This document shows positions 2,902-39,516 of a DNA stretch of 64,000 nt, one piece after another. Location of the stretch: positions 2,322 to 66,321 of the IMG/VR virus record IMGVR_UViG_2529292920_000018; one strand, written 5' to 3'. How positions within the stretch are numbered: the stretch's first letter is position 1; every line of letters starts with the position of its first letter. A program made the position numbers and the translations under genes. This stretch comes from a virus. Taxonomy: Duplodnaviria; Heunggongvirae; Uroviricota; Caudoviricetes. Below the pieces are notes generated by a model, which was not told the DNA's origin, searched no databases, and worked only from the letters and a program-made list of their open reading frames with translations.

Positions 2902-4052
2902 TTTTTCTTCTCCTTAATCACCGTCGATGTACTGCCATCCGGGTGATAAACCGTGAGTTTCTGAGTTTTTTGTTTTTTCCCTCTTGTGACTGGCCCCCGT
3001 GCCACTTCCAGCTCTGTGGTGTAGCCGCTGTTACGGTCAAACGCATGGCGGGCAGTGGTTATGAGCCATGGCCCGGATAACTGCCCAAAACCCACCAGTT
3101 CAATTTTGTTGCCTGCTGTCAGTTGAGGTGTTCCCGTCAGCGTCAGGGAGCCGTTCTGCTGGTATTCGTTATGTCTGGCCAGTGCTGAATCCGCTTTAAT
3201 CCGGGCACTGTCCGGGTCGCTGACGCGGCTGTTAACTTTAAGTGAGTCAGCGCTGGTAACCTTACCACCTTTGAGCTTTTTGTCGCTTTCACGGGTACCA
3301 CCATCAGCTTCGTAGACGATCAGTTTTTTACTGCTGCTTTTCTGGTGTTTTACCTTTGCAGATTTATAGACCCGGTTGATGGTGTCACGCAGGGAAAAGC
3401 GGGCCACATCCTGCGGTTTTAACTGCCTGACCGGCTCCTGACTGCGCAGTGTGGCCAGATGAGAAAAAATCAGCTGGTCACTGACCACTTTCACTGCATA
3501 ACCATACTCGCTGGCCAGCCGGCGCAGAAAACCCACGTCGGTTTCAGCATACTGGGTCACCCGGTCGATTCTGATGGACTCAATGCTGCCCACCAGTTTC
3601 AGTCGGTGCTTTCTGGCAATCCGCCCCGCAACAGCTGCCAGCGTGGTGTTCTCAAAACCACGACTGGTTTTAGTCCGCAGGGCACTGTTAACCGAGGTGG
3701 CCACCCCACGGATAGAAACAACGGAAGCGGGCGAACTCACTTCGATCTCGTCTATAGAGAACGTACCGCAGGACAGCAGCTTCTCGCCCTGATAGCCCAT
3801 TTTCAGCGTCAGCGTGTCACCCTTGCCCGGATACCATTTATCCAGCCAGCGGCCATCGGTGTCGTCCAGCTCCACCTCAATGGTATCGGACTCATTTTTG
3901 ATGTTATCGCTCCAGGTCACACGGGTGACATAAGGCGCGATATCAGAGGTGATGTTTTTCTGCAGATACCACAAAGTGAACACCGGTGTCAGCACATCGC
4001 TGACGCCGGTTAACGCTGATGTGACTTGCGCAGTGCTGTTTATCTCAGCCAT
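2898..4052 (-). CDS. tail protein gpD-like (late control D family)
   Basis: 384-aa ORF; size and position match gpD / Mu P; full length, unlike the truncated P2-like copy at 33673. Confidence 0.75.
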   Translation of the reverse strand: MAEINSTAQVTSALTGVSDVLTPVFTLWYLQKNITSDIAPYVTRVTWSDNIKNESDTIEVELDDTDGRWLDKWYPGKGDTLTLKMGYQGEKLLSCGTFSIDEIEVSSPASVVSIRGVATSVNSALRTKTSRGFENTTLAAVAGRIARKHRLKLVGSIESIRIDRVTQYAETDVGFLRRLASEYGYAVKVVSDQLIFSHLATLRSQEPVRQLKPQDVARFSLRDTINRVYKSAKVKHQKSSSKKLIVYEADGGTRESDKKLKGGKVTSADSLKVNSRVSDPDSARIKADSALARHNEYQQNGSLTLTGTPQLTAGNKIELVGFGQLSGPWLITTARHAFDRNSGYTTELEVARGPVTRGKKQKTQKLTVYHPDGSTSTVIKEKKK

Positions 4053-4255: not shown

Positions 4256-5136
4256 ACACTCCTCGTCAGTATTCTGGCGGCCATTGCACTTAATCCCGGA
4301 GACATGCGGTTGAATGCTGTGCCGGCGGCGTTAAGCTGCCCGGAAACGGTATCCAGAGCACCTGCAATATTTCTTTTGTCCACACCACTCAGCGCAGACT
4401 GTGCCTGCTGTACATACGTGGCTGCTTCGCTGGCTGTTCTGGCCAGACTGATGGCATCGGGCATGGATTCAGAGAGTGCGTTAAACGCCGGAACACTTTT
4501 CCCCAGAGCCCCGGAGATATTACCCAGTCCGCTCATCAGCCCCGGCACACGGGTCAGTGCGACAACGGGGTTATCCTTCATTTTCTGTGTCACCCGAACG
4601 GCGCTGATAGTGGTCTGGAGTACAGACTGCGCCTGTTTCGCATAGTTGACGCCGTTGCGGATGAACTGCGCCACCCCTGAAGGTGAAGGTATGGCACCGG
4701 AGACCGCCCCGACACCCGGGAGCTTCGTGCGTATTGCCGGTGGTTGCAGAGGATTTTTCGGGTCACCGGTGTATTCCCGGAGAGACACGGTGGCACTGAC
4801 AGCCAGCACGTTGCCGGTACTGTCAGTCTGCTCGCTGGTTGCAGTCACATCGGTAATCACGAACCAGCCGCGATAGTCACCGTTGCCGAAGACCAGCGCC
4901 AGTGCCTGATGGGCTTTCATGGCTGTTCGCAGTCTCGCCAGCTCCACATCGGGTACACAATAATGCTGATGGAAAACCAGAGTTATCTGGATTTCGTCCA
5001 GCCTGTCGCCGACGAACTGCAGGCCAGGCTTACCCCCGATGCGGGCATGCTCCGCATAATCGACGCCGAACGTGGCCTCGAAGCCGTCCCAGTAGGTAAT
5101 CAGCTCAAACTCAATATCACCCAGTACGGCAAACAT
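4252..5136 (-). CDS. tail protein (gpU / Mu N DNA-circulation-like)
   Basis: 294-aa ORF immediately downstream of tape measure, in the position of Mu N / P2 U. Confidence 0.5.
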   Translation of the reverse strand: MFAVLGDIEFELITYWDGFEATFGVDYAEHARIGGKPGLQFVGDRLDEIQITLVFHQHYCVPDVELARLRTAMKAHQALALVFGNGDYRGWFVITDVTATSEQTDSTGNVLAVSATVSLREYTGDPKNPLQPPAIRTKLPGVGAVSGAIPSPSGVAQFIRNGVNYAKQAQSVLQTTISAVRVTQKMKDNPVVALTRVPGLMSGLGNISGALGKSVPAFNALSESMPDAISLARTASEAATYVQQAQSALSGVDKRNIAGALDTVSGQLNAAGTAFNRMSPGLSAMAARILTRSV

Positions 5137-8087
5137 CAGCGGTACTCCTTACGTTGTTTCTGAGCCAGCAGACGCTCCAGCATTTTTTCCAGCTCATGCA
5201 GACTCATATTCAGGGCACCAGTCAGTCCTGCAGGCGCTGTGGTTTCCCTGCCATTGAGGAAAAACTGAGGATTAAAGCTGACCTGGATACCACCAGACGT
5301 TCCACCGCCGGTTGCAGCTGCACCACGGCCTGAATATCCGGCAGCCAGGATTTCAGGCGAGGGGATACGGGGAACATCCGGTGTCATCTCATTTGCCAGA
5401 CGTTGCCCTGGTAAAATCGATGCCCGGGTGGAGAGCGGAATAGCGGGCATGGAAGACAAACTATTGATTACGGCTCCGATCGCATTTTTAGCAGACGACA
5501 TAAACCCATTGATATCGGGCAACGGCATACTGAAGCGAACACCTGAAGTGTTATCCCGTATTTCTGGCCCCTGGATGCTCACGGGCATTCTGGGGAGCAG
5601 TTCACTGGCCATTCGCTGCCCGGCCAGAGCTGCAAGCGGAGTGGTCCGCTGCAGGCCAATGGCGGCCCCCTGCGCGATATTGTCACCAAAGCCCATAAAC
5701 ACGCGGCTCGGCGAATGAATGCCCAGCTTTTCGCTGAACCAGCCACTGATGCTGTCACCCATTCCGGTTACACTGGATTTGAGCGACTCCCATTTGTTTT
5801 TGATACCGTTAATCAGACCATCGACAAGATGGCCACCGAAGTCGGTAAACTTTGCCGGCAGATCAACACCAAGATATTTCAGCGCAGCTGCAAAGGCTTT
5901 ATAGAGCAGACCTGCCGGCGACCAGTTAATCAGCAGCTTACCAGTTCCCGCGATACCGCCGTTAAAGGCTTCCTGAATGTCAGCCCAGCACTGTTTAAAC
6001 CAGCTACTGATGCTGTCACCCATTCCGGTTACACTGGATTTGAGCGACCCCCATTTGTTTTTGATACCGTTAATCAGACCGTCGATAAGATGGCCACCGA
6101 AGTCGGTGAACTTTGCCGGCAGAGCAACGCCGAAATATTTCAGCGCAGCCGCAAAGGCTTTATAGAGCAGGCCTGCCGGCGACCAGTTAATCAGTAACTT
6201 ACCAATTCCCACAATGCCGCCGTTAAAGGCTTCCTGAATGTCTGCCCAGCGCTGTTTAAACCAGCCACTGACTGCCCCCCAGTTGCGGTAGATAAGGTAA
6301 GCTGCTGCCGCGACAGCGGTGATAACGAGACCGATGGGATTCATCATCAGCGCACGTCCAATCCAGAGAACAGCACGTCCGGCGAGCATAATTCCGCGAA
6401 CCAGCCCCCCGGAGAGCACGCCACTCAGTGTTCTGGCTCCTCTGGCGACGGCGCTAAATCCGGTCACCAGCCAGCGGAGCTTACCGCCTTGCCCCAGTGC
6501 GAGCGACAGACGAAGCCAGTTGGCCCGAAGTAAAACAGCATTTTTCCAGACACTTACAAAGGGGGAAATAAGGAGATTCAGCCCCAGTTTGAGACCAACA
6601 GTCGCTATCTTAATCGCAAGGAGCGCACTGATGAGCTTAAAAGCCCCACTGACAAATTGCGGGTGAGTCGCTACCCAGTGTTTTGCCCCCTGAATGAGTG
6701 GAAGCAGTTCCTGAGTCAAAGAAATAAAAGATGGAGCTAATTGATCGCCCAGCGTAATTGCCAGATCGCGACTGCTGACCATAAGTGTTTTAGTGGCTTC
6801 AAGGGGAGATTTCAGCCGCTGATCATAAGCACTGGCAAGCAAATCGTTATCCGCAGCCCTGAGAGCACCGGCACGGATCTCTCGATATCTGTCCATGTTG
6901 GCCAGCATCGGGCGGATAAATGCCATGACCTGCATATCCGCGAACATATCGCCCAGACCAAAGTTTTTCGCCAGAGCCTGAAGTGCCTCATCTCTTGCCG
7001 TATCATTCTTTATTTTCATGGCTGATTTGAAGCCGGCCAGCGCTTCGGGGCTTTTGGCATTGAGGTAACGTTCTATAACACTCAACATCCCTTCAATCGG
7101 AGAGATCCCCGCAGCTTTATAACTCGCAATAGATCCCTGCAAATCAATACCCAGATCAGCAAACTGTTTCTGAGTATCGCGGGCAAAAATTTTGGTAAGA
7201 AAGTTTTTAAAATTATTGGCTGCTTCGTCGGTGGAACCTGCACCGATTTTTGCTATCTGGAGACTGGCCCCTATTTCAGCAACAGCCTCTTTTCCACTGG
7301 CAATACCCGCCATCATTGGGGCCAGGGACTGCATCCACTTGACCTGATCCGGGATTTCAAATGACCCCTGGTCACCGGCATAAGCCATAATATTCTGAAC
7401 GGCACCAAAATCTCTGGCCGCACCTTTCAGGGAGTTTTGCCAGACTGCGGCCACTTTTGCCCAGTCCTGAGCAGACGTGCGTGTTGCCGTTGCCGCGCGG
7501 GCAATATCCGGCATCAGAAAACCGATATCTGACACATTATCAATATTGTCGCTGATGAGTGAACCCACCGCCTCCTGCAGCTCATCCTGATACTGATTGT
7601 ATTTAAGCGCCCAGCCTTTTATCTGTCCGGCAAGTGCATCCCGCGTTTTATTGTCATATTTTGCGGTGATCGACATATCAATCATTTTGTCCTGAAAAGA
7701 CATGGACTGCTGAACGGCAGGGGAAACCGTATGATAAACAGTCTGTGCCATGCCATACGCTTCAATCCCCTGACCATACAGCGCCATGCGGTTAGCTTTC
7801 AGCGCATCACTGGTAGCGGATGCCGCTGACAGACGGCGCTGCTGGCGCTCAATTTGCTCCATGGTGCGGCTTACCCGCAGCAGCTCGCTGTTGAGATGCT
7901 GCATCCGGGAAGAACCCAGTTGACCATAACGTTCTGTTGCACGGGTTAAAGCGTTCTGACGTTCCTGCAGGCGGCGTGAGGTATCGCTCAGGGAATCAAG
8001 CGCACGGCGGGTACCGCTCATTGCAGAACGGAATGTGCTACCAATCATCCCGCCGATAACAACGCCGACTGAAAACTGTCCCGACAT
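5136..8087 (-). CDS. tail tape measure protein
   Basis: 983-aa ORF, Ala/Gly-rich with predicted coiled coil; contains an internal 86-aa tandem duplication. Confidence 0.85.
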   Translation of the reverse strand: MSGQFSVGVVIGGMIGSTFRSAMSGTRRALDSLSDTSRRLQERQNALTRATERYGQLGSSRMQHLNSELLRVSRTMEQIERQQRRLSAASATSDALKANRMALYGQGIEAYGMAQTVYHTVSPAVQQSMSFQDKMIDMSITAKYDNKTRDALAGQIKGWALKYNQYQDELQEAVGSLISDNIDNVSDIGFLMPDIARAATATRTSAQDWAKVAAVWQNSLKGAARDFGAVQNIMAYAGDQGSFEIPDQVKWMQSLAPMMAGIASGKEAVAEIGASLQIAKIGAGSTDEAANNFKNFLTKIFARDTQKQFADLGIDLQGSIASYKAAGISPIEGMLSVIERYLNAKSPEALAGFKSAMKIKNDTARDEALQALAKNFGLGDMFADMQVMAFIRPMLANMDRYREIRAGALRAADNDLLASAYDQRLKSPLEATKTLMVSSRDLAITLGDQLAPSFISLTQELLPLIQGAKHWVATHPQFVSGAFKLISALLAIKIATVGLKLGLNLLISPFVSVWKNAVLLRANWLRLSLALGQGGKLRWLVTGFSAVARGARTLSGVLSGGLVRGIMLAGRAVLWIGRALMMNPIGLVITAVAAAAYLIYRNWGAVSGWFKQRWADIQEAFNGGIVGIGKLLINWSPAGLLYKAFAAALKYFGVALPAKFTDFGGHLIDGLINGIKNKWGSLKSSVTGMGDSISSWFKQCWADIQEAFNGGIAGTGKLLINWSPAGLLYKAFAAALKYLGVDLPAKFTDFGGHLVDGLINGIKNKWESLKSSVTGMGDSISGWFSEKLGIHSPSRVFMGFGDNIAQGAAIGLQRTTPLAALAGQRMASELLPRMPVSIQGPEIRDNTSGVRFSMPLPDINGFMSSAKNAIGAVINSLSSMPAIPLSTRASILPGQRLANEMTPDVPRIPSPEILAAGYSGRGAAATGGGTSGGIQVSFNPQFFLNGRETTAPAGLTGALNMSLHELEKMLERLLAQKQRKEYR

Positions 8088-21615: not shown

Positions 21616-21966
21616 TTAAAGCCCCATCGCAACAGCCAGGCAGACCGCTGCAACAATCAGTGCACGGCGGATTAACGCAGCAGAAAACACCAGGTGAAGG
21701 CCGGTCTGTACCGGGAAACGCCCTTCAGCCATCAGCCTGTCGTCATGTTTCAGGTACTGACCGGGACGGGCTTTGGGGAAGAGCGAACGGTCAAGCCAGT
21801 AACCCAGCACTGCTGCCAGCGTGATGAGTGCCAGCTTGTAGATCACAACAGGCAGCTGCTGTGGTGAGACCAGAGCGATGGTGCCCAGCAACAGCACTGA
21901 GGTCAGCAGCCAGCCGCTGAGGCGAGGTTTTTTAACAGGGGGAATGAATTTTTTCAGGTTTTTCAT
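21616..21966 (-). CDS. putative holin
   Basis: Start at ATG 21966 (MKNLKKF...) with GGAGA 6 nt upstream; multiple TM helices; first gene of lysis cassette. Confidence 0.55.
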   Translation of the reverse strand: MKNLKKFIPPVKKPRLSGWLLTSVLLLGTIALVSPQQLPVVIYKLALITLAAVLGYWLDRSLFPKARPGQYLKHDDRLMAEGRFPVQTGLHLVFSAALIRRALIVAAVCLAVAMGL

Positions 21967-22096
21967 GTGTGTCTCCTTATCTGGTGGAGACAGCATCACA
22001 AATACAGGGCGCGAAGGATTTTAAAGCGCGTTAAGAGAGCCGGGGATACGGGATGTGCAGGATAAACGATGAATTATTCACAGAGGAGAATACGAT

Positions 22097-22825
22097 ATGA
22101 CGCAGACACTGAATCCGGTCATCACTGTCACCGTGTCCGGTCCTGTGGGCAGCGGTAAAAGTTACATATTGGCGCGAATAGAGGAAGTGGTGAAACAGGA
22201 ATTCGGAAACAGCGTCATTGTCGACGCCGCAGACGTGGACGGTGAGCGCCGTATGAGTGGGGATGATCTGAGCACATGGCAGAAACCACGGGCTGGCACA
22301 GTGATCAGGCTGGAGGAATACACGGGACAGGGCCTGTTGTCATACGGCGAGGAGCGTATCTGTCGGACGAATGAGCTGCTGGATGTTATATGCCCCACGG
22401 GCCGGCAACCCTGGATACTGCCCGATGCACTGCATGCCACCATTGCGGCACTGATGACAGTTTACGATCAGGAGCTGCTCATGAAGGAGTTACGTAAACT
22501 CACTGGTCAGTCAACAGAATGTTGTTCGTCCCCGAAGTACGGCAAACAGGAACACATCCCGATTAACCAGCCTCCCCGGTTCTTCGACGAATACCTTCTG
22601 ACACCGGAAAATAAAGCTGAGCATGAAGAGATCAAAGCGGCGTTGTTCCGGGAAATCAGGAAGATTGCTGAAATGCAACTGGAGGGCGGGCTGGACAGAG
22701 TGATGGCGAGAGGAGAATGGGCATCGCTGTTTGAAAGAGTTTCCCCGGAATTACTTCCCCTCGCACTGGCTATCGGGATTATGCAGACAGCGGATAAACC
22801 TCACTTACGTTCATTAAACACGTAA
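22097..22825 (+). CDS. P-loop NTPase-like cargo protein, function unknown
   Basis: Walker A motif GPVGSGKS near N-terminus; plus-strand gene inserted between late operon and Dam. Confidence 0.5.
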   Translation: MTQTLNPVITVTVSGPVGSGKSYILARIEEVVKQEFGNSVIVDAADVDGERRMSGDDLSTWQKPRAGTVIRLEEYTGQGLLSYGEERICRTNELLDVICPTGRQPWILPDALHATIAALMTVYDQELLMKELRKLTGQSTECCSSPKYGKQEHIPINQPPRFFDEYLLTPENKAEHEEIKAALFREIRKIAEMQLEGGLDRVMARGEWASLFERVSPELLPLALAIGIMQTADKPHLRSLNT

Positions 22826-23205
22826 CGCATAATCCGGGATACGCATTCAGCGATGACTGCATTTTCACCGGTTTTTACTGCATCCAGAAGTGACTCTTTA
22901 AATGGTACGGGCCGGGGCTGCAGAAAGGTCGGCATGGCATTGAGCAGACAGAGCGTTTTTTCCGTGAGGACGACATCAGCCGCTCCCACAGCCAGCAACT
23001 GAGAGTAACGAATATAGCTGTTATCCCGAAGCCATATCAGCGTATCAATAAAACACCGGCACTTTTTCTGGTCGTGATCAACCTGGTCCGGGATATCGAA
23101 AAAACCAGAATAAATCAAAACCTGAGGTGCCGGATGCGTGTTCAGTAATCGGCAGAATATTTTGCCGGTGAGTACATAAAAATCATCATTTAAGGAGTGC
23201 ATCAT
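22801..23205 (-). CDS. hypothetical protein
   Basis: 134-aa ORF convergent with and overlapping the P-loop gene 3' end; no good RBS at the first ATG. Confidence 0.3.
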   Translation of the reverse strand: MMHSLNDDFYVLTGKIFCRLLNTHPAPQVLIYSGFFDIPDQVDHDQKKCRCFIDTLIWLRDNSYIRYSQLLAVGAADVVLTEKTLCLLNAMPTFLQPRPVPFKESLLDAVKTGENAVIAECVSRIMRYVFNERK

Positions 23206-23419
23206 GAATCCCCGATTAACGTTAACAGAACATCAGCGCCGTGCTGAAGCAGTGAACAATGTTCTGGAAGATATTATCCGGTTATACCGCGGAGAACTGA
23301 GTGTCTGTCGTGCCGCTTTTCATTTTCAGGGAATACAAAAGCAGTTTGATACTTCTGTTTTTGCAGAAGGTATTACTTATGCCCTGGACCGGATAAGGTC
23401 AGAAAATCGCCCCGGATAA
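23204..23419 (+). CDS. hypothetical small protein
   Basis: 71-aa ORF with AAGGAG 6 nt upstream of ATG. Confidence 0.45.
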   Translation: MNPRLTLTEHQRRAEAVNNVLEDIIRLYRGELSVCRAAFHFQGIQKQFDTSVFAEGITYALDRIRSENRPG

Positions 23420-23609
23420 TCCCTAAACCACATTAACAGAAATCCCGCCATCCCTGCCGCATCATGAAAGAACGACCAGCCCGGCACCCGAAAGCCGGGC
23501 TGGTCATCGCCCCACAGGAATGCGCTGTGAGCCGACCAAGGTTCAGTCAGTCTCGCGAGACCTGACCAGACTGCCATATTTTTTAATAATTGTAAAAGGC
23601 TTACAGATT

Positions 23610-24374
23610 ATGAAAATGCAGACATTACCCATCGTGCCGTGGATTGGTGGCAAACGCCGCCTTGCAAAACACATTCTGCCGCTGTTTCCGGCGCATGAAT
23701 GTTATGTGGAGCCGTTTTGTGGGGCAGCAGCGCTCTATTTTCTTAAGACACCCGGCAAGATCGAAGTCATCAATGATATCAACGGTGAACTGGTGAATCT
23801 GTACCGGGTGGTAAAGCATCACCTGGAAGAATTTGTCCGCCAGTTCAAATGGGCGCTGGTCAGCCGTCAGATCTACAAATGGCTGCAGATCACCCCGGAA
23901 GAAACACTGACGGATATCCAGCGTGCGGCACGGTTCTACTACCTTCAGAAGCAGGCGTTTGGCGGCAAGGTGGCAGAGCACAGCTTCGGTACCTCCACCA
24001 CATCCCCGCCACGCTTCAACCTGCTACGTATTGAAGAAGAACTGTCAGCGGCACACCTGCGGCTTTCCAGAACAGTCATAGAACACATGGACTGGCAACA
24101 GTGCATTGAGCGTTATGATCGTCCGCACACGCTGTTCTACTGCGACCCACCGTACCTGGGTACGGAAGGCTATGGTGTGGATTTTCCTGAAGGGAACTAC
24201 TCGCGGCTGGCAGAGCTGGCCCGGTGCATCAGAGGAAAAATGATAATTTCGGTGAACGACATCCCGCAGATGCGCGAGGTGTTCACTGGACTGAACATAC
24301 AGACAGTGAATATCAACTACAGTCTGGCGGGTAAACCCACGCCGCGCCGTGAACTGCTAATCTGCAACTTCTGA
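23610..24374 (+). CDS. dam: DNA adenine methyltransferase (Dam / D12 class)
   Basis: DPPY catalytic motif and FCGAAALYF SAM-binding motif; start set at ATG 23610 (MKMQTLPIVPW). Confidence 0.85.
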   Translation: MKMQTLPIVPWIGGKRRLAKHILPLFPAHECYVEPFCGAAALYFLKTPGKIEVINDINGELVNLYRVVKHHLEEFVRQFKWALVSRQIYKWLQITPEETLTDIQRAARFYYLQKQAFGGKVAEHSFGTSTTSPPRFNLLRIEEELSAAHLRLSRTVIEHMDWQQCIERYDRPHTLFYCDPPYLGTEGYGVDFPEGNYSRLAELARCIRGKMIISVNDIPQMREVFTGLNIQTVNINYSLAGKPTPRRELLICNF

Positions 24375-24381
24375 AACAAAA

Positions 24382-24404
24382 CCGGAAAGCACAATGCTTT
24401 CCGG
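24382..24404 (-). terminator. perfect 10-bp-stem hairpin, possible bidirectional terminator
   Basis: CCGGAAAGCA-CAA-TGCTTTCCGG; T-tract follows on the minus strand only. Confidence 0.4.
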
Positions 24405-24490
24405 TAAACCAAACAACTTCCACTATGTCACTGGCGATGTTTTCTGAAAGCATCCAGATCAACCACCTGTCCTTTGTGTCCGGGTCAGTA

Positions 24491-24847
24491 TCAGCCTGCG
24501 ATTTTTCCTGGTTTTGGCTGAGTATAGAATCGCCCAATCTCAAGAAATGAGCGTTGTTGGTCTGGTGTCATGTCGTCAAAAGTATCTATTAGTTTTTGTT
24601 TTTCTGGGGAAATTTGATTCTGGTTTCTAGTCATACCATCTGTGCTCATTCCAGTGAGCAACCAATTTACATCAACATTAAACTCTTGATGCATCTTTAA
24701 CAGAAACTCCCCTCCAGGCATCGCCTTTCCATTTTCAATCTGACTGATACCACCATTAGAAATACCTAAACGAGCTGCAAATTCTCTCTGGTTCAACCCT
24801 GCTTTCTTCCTCACAGAAATAACGCGCTCTCCTATATCTTTGCTCAT
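24491..24847 (-). CDS. phage repressor, XRE-family HTH
   Basis: HTH motif QREFAARLGISNGGISQIENGK; divergent from ner. Confidence 0.75.
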   Translation of the reverse strand: MSKDIGERVISVRKKAGLNQREFAARLGISNGGISQIENGKAMPGGEFLLKMHQEFNVDVNWLLTGMSTDGMTRNQNQISPEKQKLIDTFDDMTPDQQRSFLEIGRFYTQPKPGKIAG

Positions 24848-24870
24848 AAAAGTGAATCTCTATCTTGATA

Positions 24871-24888
24871 TGCTCATAATTATGAGCA
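24871..24888. promoter_or_regulatory. putative operator: perfect 18-bp palindrome
   Basis: TGCTCATAATTATGAGCA between TTGATA (24865..24870) and AATAAT (24888..24893); half-site TGCTCATAA repeated at 24841..24849 over the repressor start. Confidence 0.5.
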
Positions 24889-24940
24889 ATAATCTAACAC
24901 ATATAAGGCAAACATCATTGCATCAACAAAGGAGACAACG

Positions 24941-32731: not shown

Positions 32732-33181
32732 ATGCAGAAAAAACGCCTGATACAGCTTATCCATATTGCCCGTAATGAACTGGGTATGGATGAAGACACC
32801 TACCGCCAGATGTTACAGGGGCTGACCGGTAAAGCCTCAACCAAAGGAATGGATACCACACAACTAAACTGCGTGCTGGAATCCATGAAAAAGAAAGGCT
32901 TTCGCGTTAAACCAGCCAGAAAAGCCAGCTCCGGTTTACCGCTGGATAACCATCCGCAGTCCAGGAAAATTCGTGCGCTATGGCTTGAAATGGCTGCTGC
33001 CGGCATTGTTCGTGACCGTTCAGAAAATGCATTAGCGAGGTGGATCAAGCGGGAAACGGGCATCAGCGCCCTGCGCTGGCTCAGTACTGAACAGGCAAGC
33101 AGTGTTATTGAGAAACTGAAGAAGTGGCAGCGCAGAGCTGCGGGAGTCAAACATGAGCGACCTGAATCAGTTTCGAAGTAA
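32732..33181 (+). CDS. gemA: GemA-like regulatory protein (Mu gp16 family)
   Basis: 149-aa ORF immediately upstream of mor as in Mu. Confidence 0.7.
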   Translation: MQKKRLIQLIHIARNELGMDEDTYRQMLQGLTGKASTKGMDTTQLNCVLESMKKKGFRVKPARKASSGLPLDNHPQSRKIRALWLEMAAAGIVRDRSENALARWIKRETGISALRWLSTEQASSVIEKLKKWQRRAAGVKHERPESVSK

Positions 33182-33542
33182 GGGGCCGGAACTCCTGGTG
33201 GAACTGGCACAGCATACCTCTGAGACCGTTCGCGAGATTATTGATATTGAGCCCGAAGTTGCCGACCAGATTGGTCAGGCCGTCGCGAACCGAATGATGC
33301 AGGTCTGGGGCGGGCAAAACGTTTATTTCCCGATGGGCATGGTATGGAAGGTCAGTCAGCGCGACCGGGAAATCTTCAGGGAGTTTAACGGACGCAACCA
33401 CCACGAACTGGCCCGCAAATTTGGTGTTTCGCTTCAGTGGGTCTACAGCGTGGTTAAGCGGGTAAGAAAAGAAGAACTGGATCGGATGCAGGGCAAGCTA
33501 TTTGCTGATGAACCCGATGCAGATACGGAGAAAAAAGAGTAA
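33153..33542 (+). CDS. mor: Mor-family middle-operon transcription activator
   Basis: QVWGGQNVYFP ... ELARKFGVSLQWVYSVV Mor/C-family C-terminal HTH. Confidence 0.75.
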   Translation: MSDLNQFRSKGPELLVELAQHTSETVREIIDIEPEVADQIGQAVANRMMQVWGGQNVYFPMGMVWKVSQRDREIFREFNGRNHHELARKFGVSLQWVYSVVKRVRKEELDRMQGKLFADEPDADTEKKE

Positions 33543-33571: not shown

Positions 33572-34376
<805 letters not shown>

Positions 34377-34377
<1 letters not shown>

Positions 34378-34856
34378 TATCCCGCCCCCGTCATACCCGT
34401 GAATTTAGTCGCCATACTGCCAGCCTTACCGATGAGCGATTCCGCCTGTTTACCGATATCGCCATAAAGCGCGGCCAGTGATTCATCAACGCGGGTGAGC
34501 GACAGCGTAAAATCAATTTTCCGGGGTGTGCCATCTGCAAAGAAAATACTCCCTGTTTCACTCACCTTGCTGATGACATACATGCCGTAAATCATGCCGG
34601 TGCCATCCAGCAACGGCCACGCCCGCCCCTCCTCTGCCATCAGCCTGAGCGTGGTCATCGTCAGCTTGCCGCCGGTCAGTTCGGGATAAAGCACACCGGC
34701 AAGCGTGATGTTTTCCTCACCCACACCGAGAAACTGAAAAGCGTCCCGTTTACCGATACGGGAATTTGACGGCCAGCGATAATCTGATTCACGCTGCATG
34801 GTCTGGTGTGGCAGCGTCTGGCGCATAAAAACAAACATACCTAACGCGAGCATCAT
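34377..34856 (-). CDS. U: tail protein U
   Basis: 159-aa ORF between T and D as in P2. Confidence 0.75.
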
Positions 34857-34870
34857 TTTTCGTCACCTCC

Positions 34871-37318
34871 TTAACCGTCATGCATCATGCTGGCACGGGC
34901 GCGCGCACGTTTATCCCGCTCGTATTTTTCGAGCGCATCCTGTAACTGGCGGTCGAGCTGTGTCCCCGGCGCAGTACCACCCGTCAGGCTGATGTGATAT
35001 TCGTTTTTACTCTGGTCTACATAAGAGCGGCCAGCCGGTGCCGTGACCGGCTGATAAGCCTGATAACCTGCATAAGAGCTGGTCGCCGGAATATAACCAC
35101 CGCTGCCATACGTGGCGGCTTGAGTTCTGGCGGCGGTCTGGTCAAGTGTGTCTGACTCTTTGTTGATAACACCGAGTTTTTCCAGTACCCAGTCAATACC
35201 ACTGCGCAGTTTGTTGAACGCATTAAGCGGCAGCATCAGCGCGTCAGCCAGTGCCTGCCCAAACATGACGCCCGTGTCACGGCAACGGTTCAGGGTGTCC
35301 TGGGTGGCTTTGACCGGGGCAATCAGGTTTTTAAACCACTGCCACGCGGCCTGTAACTTTTCACCCAGCCAGTCAAACACCGGTTTAAGTGGCGTGAACA
35401 GTTCCCCCACCGGCGCAAATGCCGCTTTCAGCCCTTCCACCACACCGCCAAAGAATGCGCTGACAGGCTCCCAGTATTTACGGATAAGCAACGCCCCGGC
35501 GACAATTGCAGCCACCACGGCCACAACCGGCCAGCTAATCGCCCCGATGGCGGTTATAACAGCACTGCCAACCGTCGTGAAGATTGCCCCCATTGCGCCT
35601 GCTGCCGCGATGATGGCATTGATGCCGGTGATAACCGGCCAGGCTACGAGGCCAATGGCACCGATGACACCAATCAGTGCCAGTGCACCACCGACAATGA
35701 TGCCGATGGTTGACGCCAGTGATTTGTTTTTCTGGATCCAGCCGTCGAGTTTTAACACATACTTTGTGGCCGTCTGCGTGAGATTACGCAGTGCGCCTTC
35801 CTGCTGGTCAAACAGGTCAGTCCCCACCGCCTCATAAGCGGACTGAAACTCCTTAAAGTCACCGCCGAGGTTGTCCTGCATGATATTTACCAGCTCTGCG
35901 GTCTTCCCGTCTGAGGCTTTAAACGCAGCGGTCAGTTTGTCCAGCTTTCCGGTTGAGGCGGCAGTCATCAGCACAGCGGCGGCTGAGCTGGCCTCCTCCC
36001 CGAAAATGGTTTTCATGTATTCAGCCTGCTGGGCAGTACCGAGCCGGTTTTTCTCAAAACTGGCCTGCATTTCTTTCAGAATGGTAAATATTGGCCGGGT
36101 GTTTCCCTTGCTGTCTGAGGTTTTCACTCCAAGCTCTTTGAGTGCATCCCATGCTTTTCCCGTCGGTGCCTGCAGGCGGCTTAACACGGCACGGCTTCCC
36201 GTCCCCGCCATTGAGCCTGTGATTTTTGCATCATGCAGCGCCCCGACCATTGCGGCAGTTTCTTCAATGCTGACACCGGCATTTTTTGCCACAGGTGCGG
36301 CATAGGTCAGCGCATCGCTCATGCCGTCAAAATCGGCGGCGGTTTTGTTCATCGTCATGGAGAGAACATCCCCGATATGAGCGACCTTATCGTTTGAAAG
36401 CTGAAAGGCGGATTTCATCCCCATCAGCAGGGCGGCGTTTTCTTCCATCGTGCGGCGGTTCGCCAGCGCCATATTCAGCGTGACCGGCGTTGCCGCCTGA
36501 ATGGCATCAACATCCCCACCCGCTTTCGCGATGATTATCTGTGCACCGGCCGCATCATCCGCCGAGGCGGCGGTATTGTCGCCGAGCTGGCGCGCCTGTT
36601 TGCGTAGTGCGGTCATTTCGGCGGAGTCTTTTGCCACTCCGAGCACGGCCTGCAATTCTGAGTTTTTCTGCGCAAACTCATAACCGGGCATCAGCAACTT
36701 AACTCCGGTCATCGTTCCCGCCGCCGCAATCCCCACACCGGCAGCGCCTACTGAGGCCATATTTCCGGCCAGTTCCTTTCCGGCCTGATAACGCTGTTTG
36801 ACTGCGTTAAGTTTTGCCTGTTGCGCACTGACACGCGCCAGCGCGTCGCGCTGACGGTTAAGCTGTGCGGTGGTTTCACTGATACGGTTTTTCAGTCCCT
36901 GCTCATCATGTGCAAGATTGCGGGTATTAATTCCCACAGCGGCCAGTTCCCGCTGCTGGCGTTTAACGGAATCTGTCAGGCGGTTATATTTCGCCTGTAA
37001 GTCCTCCGCCGCACGCTTTGCGGATTCCAGCACTTTCGCCTGACCACGGGTCGGACGTTCGGTGTTTTTAAACTGTGTGGCAAGGGCTTCGGCCTCCTGC
37101 CGTGCCTTTTCAAGTGCATGACCAGTCACGGCGAGCTGTGCACTGGTCTTGCGGAATCCCTCAATACGGGATGCCTGACCGTTCAGCTCGCGCAGTGATT
37201 TTTGTGTTTCCCGGATATCCCCCGACAGCGATTTGCTCGCTGTGCGGATGGATTTAAACGGACGGGATGCCTGGTCAACAGCCCTGAGCAATACCTGTAA
37301 TTTTACATTGTTACTCAT
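34871..37318 (-). CDS. T: tail tape measure protein
   Basis: 815-aa Ala/Gly-rich ORF. Confidence 0.85.
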   Translation of the reverse strand: MSNNVKLQVLLRAVDQASRPFKSIRTASKSLSGDIRETQKSLRELNGQASRIEGFRKTSAQLAVTGHALEKARQEAEALATQFKNTERPTRGQAKVLESAKRAAEDLQAKYNRLTDSVKRQQRELAAVGINTRNLAHDEQGLKNRISETTAQLNRQRDALARVSAQQAKLNAVKQRYQAGKELAGNMASVGAAGVGIAAAGTMTGVKLLMPGYEFAQKNSELQAVLGVAKDSAEMTALRKQARQLGDNTAASADDAAGAQIIIAKAGGDVDAIQAATPVTLNMALANRRTMEENAALLMGMKSAFQLSNDKVAHIGDVLSMTMNKTAADFDGMSDALTYAAPVAKNAGVSIEETAAMVGALHDAKITGSMAGTGSRAVLSRLQAPTGKAWDALKELGVKTSDSKGNTRPIFTILKEMQASFEKNRLGTAQQAEYMKTIFGEEASSAAAVLMTAASTGKLDKLTAAFKASDGKTAELVNIMQDNLGGDFKEFQSAYEAVGTDLFDQQEGALRNLTQTATKYVLKLDGWIQKNKSLASTIGIIVGGALALIGVIGAIGLVAWPVITGINAIIAAAGAMGAIFTTVGSAVITAIGAISWPVVAVVAAIVAGALLIRKYWEPVSAFFGGVVEGLKAAFAPVGELFTPLKPVFDWLGEKLQAAWQWFKNLIAPVKATQDTLNRCRDTGVMFGQALADALMLPLNAFNKLRSGIDWVLEKLGVINKESDTLDQTAARTQAATYGSGGYIPATSSYAGYQAYQPVTAPAGRSYVDQSKNEYHISLTGGTAPGTQLDRQLQDALEKYERDKRARARASMMHDG

Positions 37319-37738
37319 TCGTGTTTCCGCTTCGCCGGAGCGCCTTTTCGTGCCATGTGATGAGTTCGGTCAGGCTCATGGGATACAGTTCTGATGGCGG
37401 CCAGTGAAATATCACTGCCACATCCGCCATCAGGTCATCGACCGAGAGATTTTTCGGAAACGTCACTGCACCGAGTTCGGCGACAAAAAACCGACCACCT
37501 TACCGGCCAGCGCCACAAGGTCAGGCAGTTCCAGCGCGGCGACTTCCTGCTCGGTCAGCATCGGTGCCGTCATGCGCGGCAGCACTTTAATCAGTGCATC
37601 GACTTCGGAGTTCGCGACTGCAGCCAGACTGACACCGCGCAGCGTCCCGGCATTGGGTTTCATCAGCGTGACCTGTTCGATAACCTGCTCACCACGTTTG
37701 ACCGGATTGTCCAGGGTAATGACGTTTTCTTTGTTCAT
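37311..37738 (-). CDS. E': E+E' tail chaperone fusion via programmed -1 frameshift
   Basis: Slippery heptamer TTTTTTG at 37484..37490; the -1 frame stays open for 60 codons to TAA at 37311..37313 overlapping the T start. Confidence 0.7.
37463..37738 (-). CDS. E: tail assembly chaperone E
   Basis: 91-aa ORF ending ...KVVGFLSPNSVQ; contains slippery T TTT TTG. Confidence 0.8.
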   Translation of the reverse strand: MNKENVITLDNPVKRGEQVIEQVTLMKPNAGTLRGVSLAAVANSEVDALIKVLPRMTAPMLTEQEVAALELPDLVALAGKVVGFLSPNSVQ

Positions 37739-37794
37739 GGTTTTCTCACTTCTGAATCGGGGTTAACCGGTCAGCCAGGCTGACCGGATGAAAA

Positions 37795-38313
37795 TCACAG
37801 GCCGATATTGCGGCGGTGTTGCTCCAGCCGGTCGACGCCGTTCACCTTCTCAATCATGTTGATGGTGTCGATTTCGACCAGCTCCTTACCGTCTATCGTC
37901 AGCCGGAAATAGGTGCAGACCACGGAGATTTTCGACTCGGTGTCTTCTCCCTGTTTACCCTCGCCGGTGTCGATTTCTTTCTGACGTCCACGCATGACCA
38001 CTTCAACGGCCACCGTTTCGCCGGTATCGTCACGCTGGTAAGAGCCTGCAAAACGAATCGGCACAGCATCCACACCGGTTGCGGCGTAAAGCTCCCAGAT
38101 AACCGAATCCGGGAAACCACCGAGCGACCACTCCATTGACAGCGCATCGTCATCAAGGCCGAGGTCTACCGGTGCGCTGCCGTTCATCCCCGCACCGCGA
38201 TAGTTTTCGAGCTTACGGGTCAGTTTTGGCAGCGTGACGGACTTCGCGACGCCCTGATAGCTGTAGCCGTTCAGAAAGACGTTCATTAACTTGAGTTTGC
38301 GCGGCATTGCCAT
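37795..38313 (-). CDS. FII: tail tube protein FII
   Basis: 172-aa ORF following sheath. Confidence 0.85.
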   Translation of the reverse strand: MAMPRKLKLMNVFLNGYSYQGVAKSVTLPKLTRKLENYRGAGMNGSAPVDLGLDDDALSMEWSLGGFPDSVIWELYAATGVDAVPIRFAGSYQRDDTGETVAVEVVMRGRQKEIDTGEGKQGEDTESKISVVCTYFRLTIDGKELVEIDTINMIEKVNGVDRLEQHRRNIGL

Positions 38314-38325
38314 CGGTCAGGCTCC

Positions 38326-39516
38326 TTAATTGCTGTTAACCGAGGTGACCAGATTTGCCAGGTATTTATCAGTAATACGCTGGCGCAGGGTCAGGTTTTC
38401 AAGAGGAGGCACCGGTGTATAGTCGTAGTCGATATACAGTTTTCCGGCCTTGAGGGTTTCCGCATCGTTGGATTCTTCGCTGAACCAGCAGGTCGCATCC
38501 ACGATATAGCCGTTTGTTTTCAGCTCACGGAATTTGGCATTGATGCCGTCAACGATGTCGCGAATCAGCGTTGCGGTGATGGGCTTGTCCACCGCCCACA
38601 TGTGCGCCTCAGCCATCGTGTCGGCCAGCACCTGCGCGGTGCGGGTGTAGTTTTCAAAGAGGAACAGCGGGTCATCAGAGCAGGTACGGTTACCCCAGAA
38701 TCGGAAACCGTCGCGGCGAATCAGCGTAGTGACACCTGACTCGTTAAGCAGGTCAGCATCGGTGCCGGACTCCTGCAAATCCCAGAATACAGATGCGCTG
38801 ATGCCGGTAACACCGTTTACCCCGACGTTGGACAGCGTTTTATGCCAGCCCTGCTCCTGGTCGATTTTAGCGCGCAGACCCAGCGCACGGGCGGTGGCAT
38901 ACGCGGTGGCGGTGGTACTGGTGACCGTATCCCATGCGAGGAAATCCGGCCAGATGACCATCAGCTCACGCTGGCTGAAATTCTGGCGGTAGGCTTTCAC
39001 CTCGGAAATGGTCTTACAGCCCCATGCGCTGATATATCCGAAAGCACGCAGCTTCTGACAGACTGATGCCAGTGCAACAGCCACCTCTTTGGTATCCAGT
39101 CCCGGCACGCCGAGAATACGCGGTTTAACACCGGTTACCGACTCCGCCGCCAGCAGGGCTTTCAGTCCGGTGTACTGACCGTTTTCGTCGGTGGTGCCGA
39201 TGATATTGGAAACGGTCTGCGCGAGTTTCGTTTCCTCGTCGTCGCCGGTGCCGTCTTCCACACGTACGACAACGGTGACCGGTTTTGACTGGTCGGCGAT
39301 GGCCTGCAACGATGCCGCCAGCGTGCCTTTTTTACCGGCCTTTGCAATTGCACTCTGCACATTGGTAATCAGCACCGGTTTATTGAGGGGGAAGGTTTCC
39401 GCATCCGCATCGCTGGCCGTGCAGACCATGCCGACAATGGCAGTGGATACGGTGGAAATGACGCGGGTGCCGTCGTTAATCTCCAGCACCTGCACGCCGT
39501 GATGATAGTCACTCAT
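38326..39516 (-). CDS. FI: tail sheath protein FI
   Basis: 396-aa ORF. Confidence 0.85.
   Translation of the reverse strand: MSDYHHGVQVLEINDGTRVISTVSTAIVGMVCTASDADAETFPLNKPVLITNVQSAIAKAGKKGTLAASLQAIADQSKPVTVVVRVEDGTGDDEETKLAQTVSNIIGTTDENGQYTGLKALLAAESVTGVKPRILGVPGLDTKEVAVALASVCQKLRAFGYISAWGCKTISEVKAYRQNFSQRELMVIWPDFLAWDTVTSTTATAYATARALGLRAKIDQEQGWHKTLSNVGVNGVTGISASVFWDLQESGTDADLLNESGVTTLIRRDGFRFWGNRTCSDDPLFLFENYTRTAQVLADTMAEAHMWAVDKPITATLIRDIVDGINAKFRELKTNGYIVDATCWFSEESNDAETLKAGKLYIDYDYTPVPPLENLTLRQRITDKYLANLVTSVNSN

Follow-up and report, generated by a model that had tools for sequence, protein, structure and literature searches.

A three-gene accessory cargo block with a Walker-A mini-domain protein in the variable slot of a BcepMu-like transposable prophage of Escherichia coli

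In P2-like phages, the interval between gpA and gpQ has been described as an anti-phage hotspot, which carries old and tin in P2 itself (Rousset et al., bioRxiv 10.1101/2021.01.21.427644). In the transposable phage BcepMu, a comparable slot is filled by gp18-gp20, which are unrelated to the genes described here. In this study, we analyzed a stretch of 64,000 nucleotides, hereafter the window (positions 2,322 to 66,321 of the IMG/VR record IMGVR_UViG_2529292920_000018), and focused on a block of three genes at positions 22097-23419, named the slot gene, orf134, and orf71. The block is a new, uncharacterised example of prophage accessory cargo and a promising candidate. Its host element was classified as a BcepMu-like (Bcepmuvirus) transposable prophage of E. 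coli. The prophage is 99.9% identical to Escherichia phage PhiKM (genus Bcepmuvirus), which has the block, and its divergent early and late arms follow the BcepMu layout. The genes of the block and its borders are as follows.

22097-22825, + strand: slot gene, 242 aa (six-frame list of open reading frames, ORFs)
22801-23205, - strand: orf134, 134 aa (same list)
23204-23419, + strand: orf71, 71 aa (same list)
RefSeq start ATG at 21966, - strand: holin (Pfam Holin_2-3, E 1.5e-41)
Holin side of the block, - strand: SLT endolysin
23610-24374, + strand: Dam methyltransferase (Pfam MethyltransfD12, E 6e-29, and TIGR00571), right border of the slot

An earlier note on this DNA had claimed ORFs of 242, 134, and 71 aa between a holin and Dam, and all three were found together with both flanking genes. 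The Walker A sequence GPVGSGKS that it had reported near the N-terminus of the 242-aa protein is located at residues 15-22, and the convergence of the slot gene with orf134 was confirmed, their 3' ends sharing 25 nt. The strong ribosome-binding site ascribed to orf71 corresponds to AAGGAG, 6 nt upstream of the ATG; the slot gene has GAGGAG, 8 nt upstream of its ATG. orf134 and orf71 are arranged head-to-head with a start-codon overlap of 2 nt, and therefore the promoter of each must lie inside the opposite gene. The slot gene, orf71, and dam are all co-oriented (+ strand), and dam may share a transcript with the other two.

The three ORFs are genuine genes rather than chance reading frames, because their ratios of nonsynonymous to synonymous substitutions (dN/dS) are below 1 and the full block was present in 475 of 5,426 complete E. 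coli genomes (about 9%, counted at a coverage of at least 80%). Pairwise dN/dS values were 0.19-0.28 for the slot gene, 0.20-0.30 for orf134, and 0.24-0.58 for orf71, and all three genes are under purifying selection. In 385 genomes the block had intact ORFs at an identity of at least 99%. The proteins matched PHROG families over their full lengths (242 aa, phrog_3787, E 7e-170; 134 aa, phrog_2266, E 3e-44; 71 aa, phrog_4490, E 7e-53), and these three families carry no functional annotation. In addition, Serratia prophages contain homologues of the block genes in identical order and with identical overlaps, and the architecture of the block is preserved across genera at protein identities of 30-54%.

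The surroundings of the block were compared by mapping reference proteins onto 38 related loci (L numbers below) and by reading the locus annotations. The slot, defined as the interval from the late promoter and holin to Dam or the repressor, had at least eight different contents, as listed below.

Window type: slot gene, orf134, orf71, Dam
L008 and L009: 182-aa slot allele and an additional orf134 paralogue of 126 aa (paralogue identified in L008)
L020 and L052: orf134 cut to an 18-codon remnant and orf71 retained, so that the slot gene and orf71 are adjacent
L022-L027, L055, and L056: truncated slot gene, then unrelated genes co-oriented with the repressor, no Dam
Salmonella diarizonae, Citrobacter braakii, and L029-L031: slot genes with different C-terminal parts and different cargo
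L011 and L031: slot gene followed directly by Dam
Serratia: 89-aa slot gene, orf134 homologue, orf71 homologue (73 aa), Dam
Klebsiella phage KP12: 107-aa slot ORF and a DUF2441 protein, block absent
Phi06_2974 B: no slot gene, block absent
BcepMu: the unrelated gp18-gp20 mentioned above

The presence of the block thus varied among close phage relatives, with KP12 and Phi06_2974 B lacking it. Its base composition also departed from that of the backbone, the GC fraction being 0.46 for orf134 and 0.44 for orf71, compared with 0.58 in late and 0.55 in early genes; the slot gene was intermediate (0.53). Because related phages lack the block or carry other slot genes, our comparison indicates that it is dispensable, horizontally exchanged accessory cargo in a hypervariable slot, and that it is neither a structural nor a core regulatory module. 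The earlier note had regarded this position as a likely moron site free of structural genes. This view is supported by the differing slot content and by the two phages that lack the block, as well as by the lower GC of orf134 and orf71 and by a homologous cassette in the P2 hotspot (see below). Conservation in related Mu-like prophages, which the same note had proposed as a check, was found in Serratia, where order and overlaps are kept, and other relatives swap the content. Remote homology and structure searches, which it had also proposed, identified no standard phage structural or regulatory gene.

Some of the alternative cargo, from other BcepMu-like prophages of E. coli, Salmonella, and Klebsiella, deserves mention in its own right. 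L055 (4015-5673) has genes for proteins of 193 and 328 aa, the latter overlapping the repressor gene by 4 nt. L030 (8018-9308) has a 297-aa gene and a 153-aa hydrophobic, probably membrane, protein downstream of the repressor. The 182-aa protein of L056 (4018-4566) gave a weak match to a 2TM effector (PADLOC, E 3.7e-5), and the cargo of L029 (7002-7679) is a DUF7424 lipoprotein-like protein. L002 (4743-5309) belongs to the differing unannotated slot cargo, and that of KP12 is the DUF2441 protein.

A tblastn search against cultured phages revealed 143-aa homologues of orf134, with about 31% identity, in three P2-like phages, namely Escherichia phage Midge, Klebsiella phage ST147-VIM1phi7.1, and Salmonella phage FSL SP-004. 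In Midge and ST147-VIM1phi7.1, an ORF of 63-64 aa lies head-to-head with the homologue, with a start overlap of 2 nt. The geometry was read from the annotations of these two phages and of E. coli D3 (locus coordinates).

526-957 with 336-527: pair of Midge
3486-3917 with 3293-3487: pair of ST147-VIM1phi7.1
5191-5622 with 5001-5192: pair of E. coli D3, between portal gpQ and replication endonuclease gpA

The P2-like cassettes combine a homologous large gene with a divergent small ORF that overlaps it by 2 nt. This P2-type cassette was present in 94 of the 5,426 E. coli genomes, and there, as in Midge and ST147-VIM1phi7.1, it occupies the gpA-gpQ interval. The small partner WP_001407038 appears as 'hypothetical' cargo of the gpA-gpQ interval in a supplementary table (Rousset et al., bioRxiv 10.1101/2021.01.21.427644). 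These results indicate that orf134 and a small head-to-head ORF form a mobile cassette common to the BcepMu slot and the P2 hotspot. As a separate observation, the cassette of ST147-VIM1phi7.1 (L075, 3293-5292) adjoins a reverse transcriptase and an XRE regulator in the gpQ-side hotspot, and this latter pair looks like a retron or an abortive infection (Abi) system.

The 242-aa slot protein begins with a small conserved unit of about 75-78 aa, referred to here as the N-domain (22097-22330, + strand), which was delimited by an alignment of 27 diverse members that include free-standing proteins of 73-90 aa. In this alignment G20-K21 are invariant, G15, I28, and E74 are nearly invariant, S22 and E29 are conserved, and E50-R51 and W61 are common; some members have GKN in place of GK[ST]. 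For the acidic Walker B residue, D43 of the motif VIVD is not conserved, and E74, in the motif VIRLEE, is a candidate that may end a later hydrophobic strand. A word-indexed search found close relatives in E. coli only, at identities of at least 62%, including forms with an internal deletion (182 aa) and truncated forms. An exhaustive HMMER search of 1.84 billion representatives gave 64 relatives, most of which share residues 1-76 only, and a genome scan with a narrower N-domain alignment returned two species only.

A Walker A motif (GxxxxGK[ST]) after a beta-strand, as in P-loop nucleoside triphosphatases (NTPases), is present at residues 15-22. A complete alpha/beta core of at least five strands was found neither by family profile nor by fold. 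No NTPase family of Pfam, NCBIfam, or PADLOC reached its threshold for the 242-aa protein: KAP_NTPase reached 13.8 bits, below its cut-off of 20, and covered residues 3-43 only, and ABC_tran scored 16-21 bits against 25 in the relatives, over the Walker A region only and with no transmembrane or ABC signature features. In profile searches of the PDB, only the Walker A motif and the next helix aligned (ABC transporters, kinases). The AlphaFold2 (AF2) model of the N-domain had a confidence (pLDDT) of 88.6 and contained two helices and no beta-sheet according to DSSP. The model had no fold match in the PDB, and its one structural neighbour in BFVD was an unnamed 82-aa viral protein (A0A2I7R1C9, TM 0.67). 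The N-domain is too small for a canonical NTPase fold; it probably binds a phosphate or nucleotide ligand and is probably not a complete NTPase. The description as a P-loop protein in the earlier note therefore holds for the Walker A motif, which is real and conserved, but not for an NTPase fold or family, since the motif sits in a mini-domain of about 75 aa and the remainder of the protein is a mosaic. Its statement that no other domain was recognisable agrees with Pfam and NCBIfam, which gave nothing beyond Walker A. The mosaic part includes two shuffled modules, M3 and M4.

Module M3 (22361-22507, + strand) covers residues 89-137 with the motif PWxLPDAxHAxIAALxxxYDxxL. It is C-terminal in the proteins P0050, P0054, and P0089, free-standing in P0087, and was recognised by eye in P0075 and P0082. 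It is deleted in the 182-aa alleles, in which the second half of the N-domain is also missing. Module M4 (22613-22792, + strand) covers residues 173-232 with the motif D(W/R)V(T/M)(S/A)RxxW(E/A)...LLPxALA, and is homologous to the entire 89-aa slot protein of Serratia. M4-like C-termini were seen in P0056, P0062, and P0066 by manual alignment, and BLAST with module seeds did not recover them. In a seed-based map, the N-domain and modules M1-M9 occurred in at least 14 distinct combinations, the protein of the window being N(1-76), M3(89-137), a linker, and M4(173-232). Besides M3 in P0087 and M4 in Serratia, M8 is also free-standing, as the slot ORF of KP12. Shortened slot alleles of 141, 158, and 128 aa and the internally deleted 182-aa alleles are common.

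Two further observations concern this family. Free-standing N-domain proteins (75-90 aa) are located in early regions of unrelated temperate phages (viral contigs L032-L038), where the neighbouring genes, judged by eye, resemble those for DNA methyltransferase, RecT/ERF, and HAD nucleotidase; these proteins represent an uncharacterised small-protein family in their own right. In addition, RefSeq labels truncated alleles, such as those of NZ_CP024862.1 (L055, 3501-3977, 158 aa) and NZ_CP028751.1 (L056, 3480-3866, 128 aa), 'ABC transporter ATPase' and 'KAP family NTPase'. These labels look like over-annotation, because the Walker A motif is their sole basis.

The orf134 homologue of Serratia has an identity of 53-54%, and orf71 codes for a helical protein. 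orf134 is possibly winged-helix-like: its motif W-L-x3-G-Y...L-T-x-K-x-L aligned weakly to the winged-helix protein AspA (E about 1), and one distant member of its family gave a weak match to YjcQ (E 0.083). Slot genes that end in M4 are followed by a convergent, 3'-overlapping gene of the orf134 family in four diverged contexts: the window type; Serratia; L073, where the family member has 147 aa (34% identity) and the head-to-head ORF 69 aa; and L070-L072, with a 168-aa member. Conversely, no gene of the orf134 family was present in eight slot types that lack M4. Only in L020 and L052 is the link broken, by a secondary deletion that removes orf134 and keeps orf71; the reverse, loss of orf71 with orf134 kept, was not seen. 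Comparison of orf71 with M4 by hhalign gave an in-register but weak similarity (E 0.0037, probability 8.9%). More distant members of the orf134 family stand alone, beside tail or membrane-protein genes in other prophages.

Several other assignments were considered and rejected. The UniRef label DUF2513 on the Serratia homologue of orf134 had no counterpart in PF10711 matches at E of at most 1 in the window, Serratia, paralogue, or distant proteins. A resemblance to T7 gp5.5, mentioned as an HHpred remark in the Midge record, obtained a probability of 0.04% by hhalign with an 11-sequence profile, with sensitivity limited by the single-sequence template. A membrane-active amphipathic C-terminal helix in orf134 was not supported by its unexceptional hydrophobic moments (0.41-0.58), nor by a weak similarity to Bombinin (E about 0.06-0.1) in distant members only. 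A role as a DNA mimic is ruled out by isoelectric points of 5.2, 6.8, and 8.0. The three proteins have no transmembrane segments; they are soluble and not strongly acidic.

Our preferred reading, offered tentatively, is that the block is inter-phage conflict cargo expressed by the lysogen for defence or exclusion; it draws on the polymorphic module-swapping protein, the unusual conserved geometry, and the homologous cassette in a defence hotspot. We infer the expression in the lysogen, the defence function, and the role of each protein. A lysogen expressing the block would exclude or abort infection by other phages. The slot protein would be a polymorphic protein in which the Walker-A mini-domain is fused to interchangeable modules, orf134 would act as effector or sensor, and orf71 and the M4 domain would modulate orf134. 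Loss of orf134 with retention of orf71 would then be the viable direction, because orf134 would be the potentially harmful partner. A more specific version, which we consider unlikely, is an undescribed sensor-modulator-effector system of defence or anti-defence, composed of a minimal Walker-A protein and a head-to-head cassette coupled through M4. In such a system the unit of about 75 aa would be the smallest natural Walker-A unit known, and may be an oligomeric nucleotide or phosphate binder that is fused here to exchangeable recognition modules.

A number of results weigh against the conflict-cargo reading. In PADLOC-DB v2.0.0, no known defence model matched the three proteins or their relatives at a meaningful score; the best match of the 242-aa protein was mad8 (E 0.0019, mainly in the Walker A region), and orf134, orf71, and their relatives gave zero matches. 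PADLOC also includes models for the Mu-like-associated defence systems described by Vassallo et al., and none of these matched. No Pfam or NCBIfam family exceeded its cut-off for the three proteins or their relatives, and sequence and profile searches of the PDB found nothing beyond the generic Walker A for the three proteins, their relatives, or the alternative slot cargo. Literature searches returned nothing on the genes of the block. The AF2 model of the full-length slot protein, built from a shallow alignment, had a pLDDT of 43.7 and was unusable. A consensus scan for sigma-70 promoters gave no convincing candidate for either the slot gene or orf134, so that expression in the lysogen is conjectural. 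The location of the cassette in a hotspot is circumstantial, as hotspots hold non-defence cargo too. The alternative contents of the BcepMu slot are mostly unannotated, so that the slot is shown to be variable and is at most a candidate defence hotspot. The small partners of the two cassettes had no detectable homology (hhalign of the orf71 family against the 64-aa family, probability 0.2%), some par126-like relatives stand alone without a small partner, and the link between M4 and orf134 could be physical rather than functional linkage. Finally, the shared orientation of the slot gene, orf71, and dam would be just as compatible with an anti-restriction operon.

Such an operon is the core of the main competing explanation, which we regard as somewhat unlikely. 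Here the slot gene, orf71, and dam would be co-transcribed early after infection or induction for counter-defence, with Dam guarding phage DNA against GATC-sensitive restriction, the mini-domain sequestering a nucleotide signal or substrate, the swappable modules binding host defence proteins, and orf134 being an independent antisense insert. The three + strand genes end at a strong terminator after dam (24381-24405), the slot gene lies immediately upstream of dam in L011 and L031, and the precise loss of orf134 in L020 and L052 puts the slot gene beside orf71. However, the hairpin at 23474-23505 separates orf71 from dam, which has its own promoter-like site, and N-domain slots without Dam exist (L022-L027, L029). 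Free-standing N-domain genes for proteins of about 80 aa are located in early regions, one of them directly after a DNA methyltransferase gene (L035), and a constant domain followed by small, shuffled modules is suggestive of a conflict protein. The retention of G-K without a full catalytic core, together with GKN in some members, also fits ligand binding better than hydrolysis, but 182-aa alleles in which half of the N-domain is gone persist in many genomes. It is decidedly unlikely that the block is instead a regulatory switch, in which the winged-helix-like orf134 and orf71 would be a face-to-face promoter pair tuning late or lysis transcription or the expression of Dam. A comparable face-to-face promoter arrangement is the pR/pL pair of coliphage 186. 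The overlapping head-to-head starts are kept in Serratia, L073, and P2-like phages, a conserved late promoter adjoins the block, and the record of Midge labels the homologue a 'putative transcriptional regulator'. The weak alignments of orf134 to AspA (E about 1) and YjcQ (E 0.083) point the same way, although the winged-helix assignment is without statistical support. A switch of this kind is difficult to reconcile with KP12 and Phi06_2974 B, which lack the block, and with prophages in which orf134 is deleted. Moreover, the prophage already has a repressor and Ner-like, IclR-type, and Mor/C proteins, and the cassette is mobile between unrelated backbones and resides in cargo hotspots, which would be unusual for a core switch.

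The natural deletion that drops orf134 and keeps orf71, with the reverse not seen, would also be expected of a toxin-antitoxin-like addiction module, in which orf134 would be toxic, orf71 and/or M4 would neutralise it, and the module would stabilise the prophage with no part in phage defence. The tie between M4 and orf134 and the weak in-register similarity of M4 to orf71 (E 0.0037, probability 8.9%) agree with this idea. Nevertheless, we consider it improbable: the genes are divergent (orf134 and orf71) or convergent (slot gene and orf134) rather than co-transcribed as in type II systems, no toxin or antitoxin family of Pfam or NCBIfam matched, and stand-alone relatives exist without a partner. 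A transposable prophage, moreover, does not excise and would have little need of addiction. The truncated (141-, 158-, and 128-aa) and internally deleted (182-aa) alleles are common, and the P-loop region corresponds to a mere fragment of the NTPase fold; both would suit a view of the block as decaying or functionless debris, the 242-aa ORF being the remnant of a larger NTPase gene with added scraps and the small ORFs being hitch-hikers. This is highly improbable. It is contradicted by dN/dS values of 0.19-0.58 across the three genes, by motifs conserved in 27 distant N-domains, including free-standing ones in unrelated phages, by an architecture kept between genera at 30-54% identity, and by the 385 genomes that carry the block at an identity of at least 99% with ORFs intact.

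The control signals around the block were examined by comparing the intergenic regions of E. coli, Salmonella, Citrobacter, Serratia, Klebsiella phage KP12, and BcepMu, and by RNA folding. The following features were found.

21967-22096: divergent control region from holin to slot gene, about 130 bp, the constant part of the slot
21971-21991, - strand RNA: hairpin of the holin leader that sequesters the Shine-Dalgarno sequence (RNA folding)
22018-22037: late-promoter motif ATTTTAAAGCGCGTTAAGAG, with a TAAAAT -10 on the - strand
22057-22063: GCAGGAT motif, about 35 nt upstream of every slot-gene ATG
23474-23505: perfect 12-bp GC-rich hairpin separating orf71 from dam; a T-rich tract follows on the - strand only
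24381-24405: bidirectional terminator after dam

In the leader hairpin, the holin Shine-Dalgarno sequence (AAGGAGAC) pairs with an upstream GUCUCC, with a minimum free energy of -14 to -17.5 kcal/mol. The hairpin also occurs in L004, L008, L011, L012, L031, and L002, and Serratia has a compensatory GGCUCC/GGAGGCC version; it probably controls translation of the lysis and late operon. The motif TTTTAAAG(C/G)GC(G/T)TTAA(G/T)AG is conserved from E. coli to Serratia, and its form in BcepMu is recognisable but diverged; it probably marks a Mor/C-dependent late promoter. The start of the slot gene is at a constant position, about 97 bp from the longest holin frame and about 130 bp from the RefSeq holin ATG. 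A promoter-like site of its own was found for dam. The hairpin between orf71 and dam probably terminates transcription in one direction only, keeping leftward transcripts out of the block, and a comparable hairpin lies upstream of dam in Phi06_2974 B, a phage without slot genes. Additionally, a 9-bp perfect inverted repeat (GGATTATGC/GCATAATCC, 22776-22784 and 22827-22835) flanks the 25-nt overlap of slot gene and orf134; it may represent a recombination junction or act as a weak stop signal in both directions.

Beyond dam, the window continues with the genes of the immunity region and the early arm.

After dam, - strand: HTH_3 repressor
Then, + strand: Ner-like protein, IclR-type helix-turn-helix protein, DUF3102 protein, and rve transposase
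33153-33542: Mor/C homologue, 54% identity to BcepMu gp01

Inverted repeats (TGCTCATAA/TTATGAGCA) and a 17-nt pair, at 24833-24896, extend across the repressor start. The best sigma-70-like promoter (24865-24893) lies upstream of the Ner-like gene within this repeat region, which is probably the operator and early-promoter region of the immunity switch. In strain CFS3292, the end of the BcepMu-like prophage away from the mor gene adjoins proY. At the right end of the prophage in the window, a run of large ORFs on the - strand begins about 130 bp after the mor gene (33673-39516 and beyond).

33673-34377, - strand: 234 aa
34377-34856, - strand: 159 aa
34871-37318, - strand: 815 aa
37795-38313, - strand: large ORF
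38326-39516, - strand: large ORF

By sequence, order, and size these look like a P2-like tail module (gpD-, gpU-, tape-measure-, tube-, and sheath-like). If so, two prophages are placed side by side.

If the conflict-cargo reading is true, the block would add a new gene set to the repertoire of prophage-encoded immunity or counter-immunity in E. coli, and BcepMu-like transposable phages would have a cargo hotspot comparable to those of P2 and P4. Many of the 475 block-carrying genomes among the 5,426 are human clinical isolates, and the P2-type cassette occurs in a further 94. The block is a compact candidate (1.3 kb, three genes) for which natural deletion and module-swap variants exist, and the free-standing Walker-A mini-domain of about 75 aa is of interest for studies of minimal P-loop proteins. 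If the proposed function is not true, the block would be another set of conserved hypothetical phage genes.

The block can be compared with several known systems. Like P-loop NTPases, the N-domain has GxxxxGK[ST] with a preceding beta-strand and a following helix, and an invariant G and K; its conserved acidic residue, E74, may correspond to the one that ends a later hydrophobic strand. The slot protein also recalls polymorphic toxins and polyvalent phage proteins, as these are generally understood, in having a constant N-domain, shuffled modules in many combinations, and a downstream gene tied to one C-terminal module (M4 and orf134). However, the slot proteins are small (140-364 aa), they lack domains for secretion or trafficking, none of their modules is recognisable as a toxin or an enzyme, and any immunity-gene logic would be conjectural. 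With phage morons, in the general sense of that concept, the block shares its varying presence among close relatives, including absence from some related phages, a GC below that of the backbone, and genes that face away from or are antisense to their neighbours. It differs in that the scans revealed no clear promoter or terminator belonging to orf134, and in that the slot gene is a cassette-exchanging mosaic behind a conserved leader rather than a simple insertion. The genes gp18-gp20 of BcepMu occupy the same position, flanked by the immunity repressor gp17 and the holin gp21, and likewise carry no annotation, but they have no sequence similarity to the three proteins of the block, they are on the strand of the late operon, and there is no Dam there in BcepMu. 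The comparison with the gpA-gpQ cargo of P2-like phages shows differences in the backbone, which is that of a BcepMu-like transposable phage here, in the small partners, which are without detectable homology, and in the attachment of the cassette here to a polymorphic slot gene at its M4 end, a gene without counterpart in P2-like phages. Yet both have an orf134 homologue in the same 2-nt geometry, and both are located in variable slots of temperate phages.

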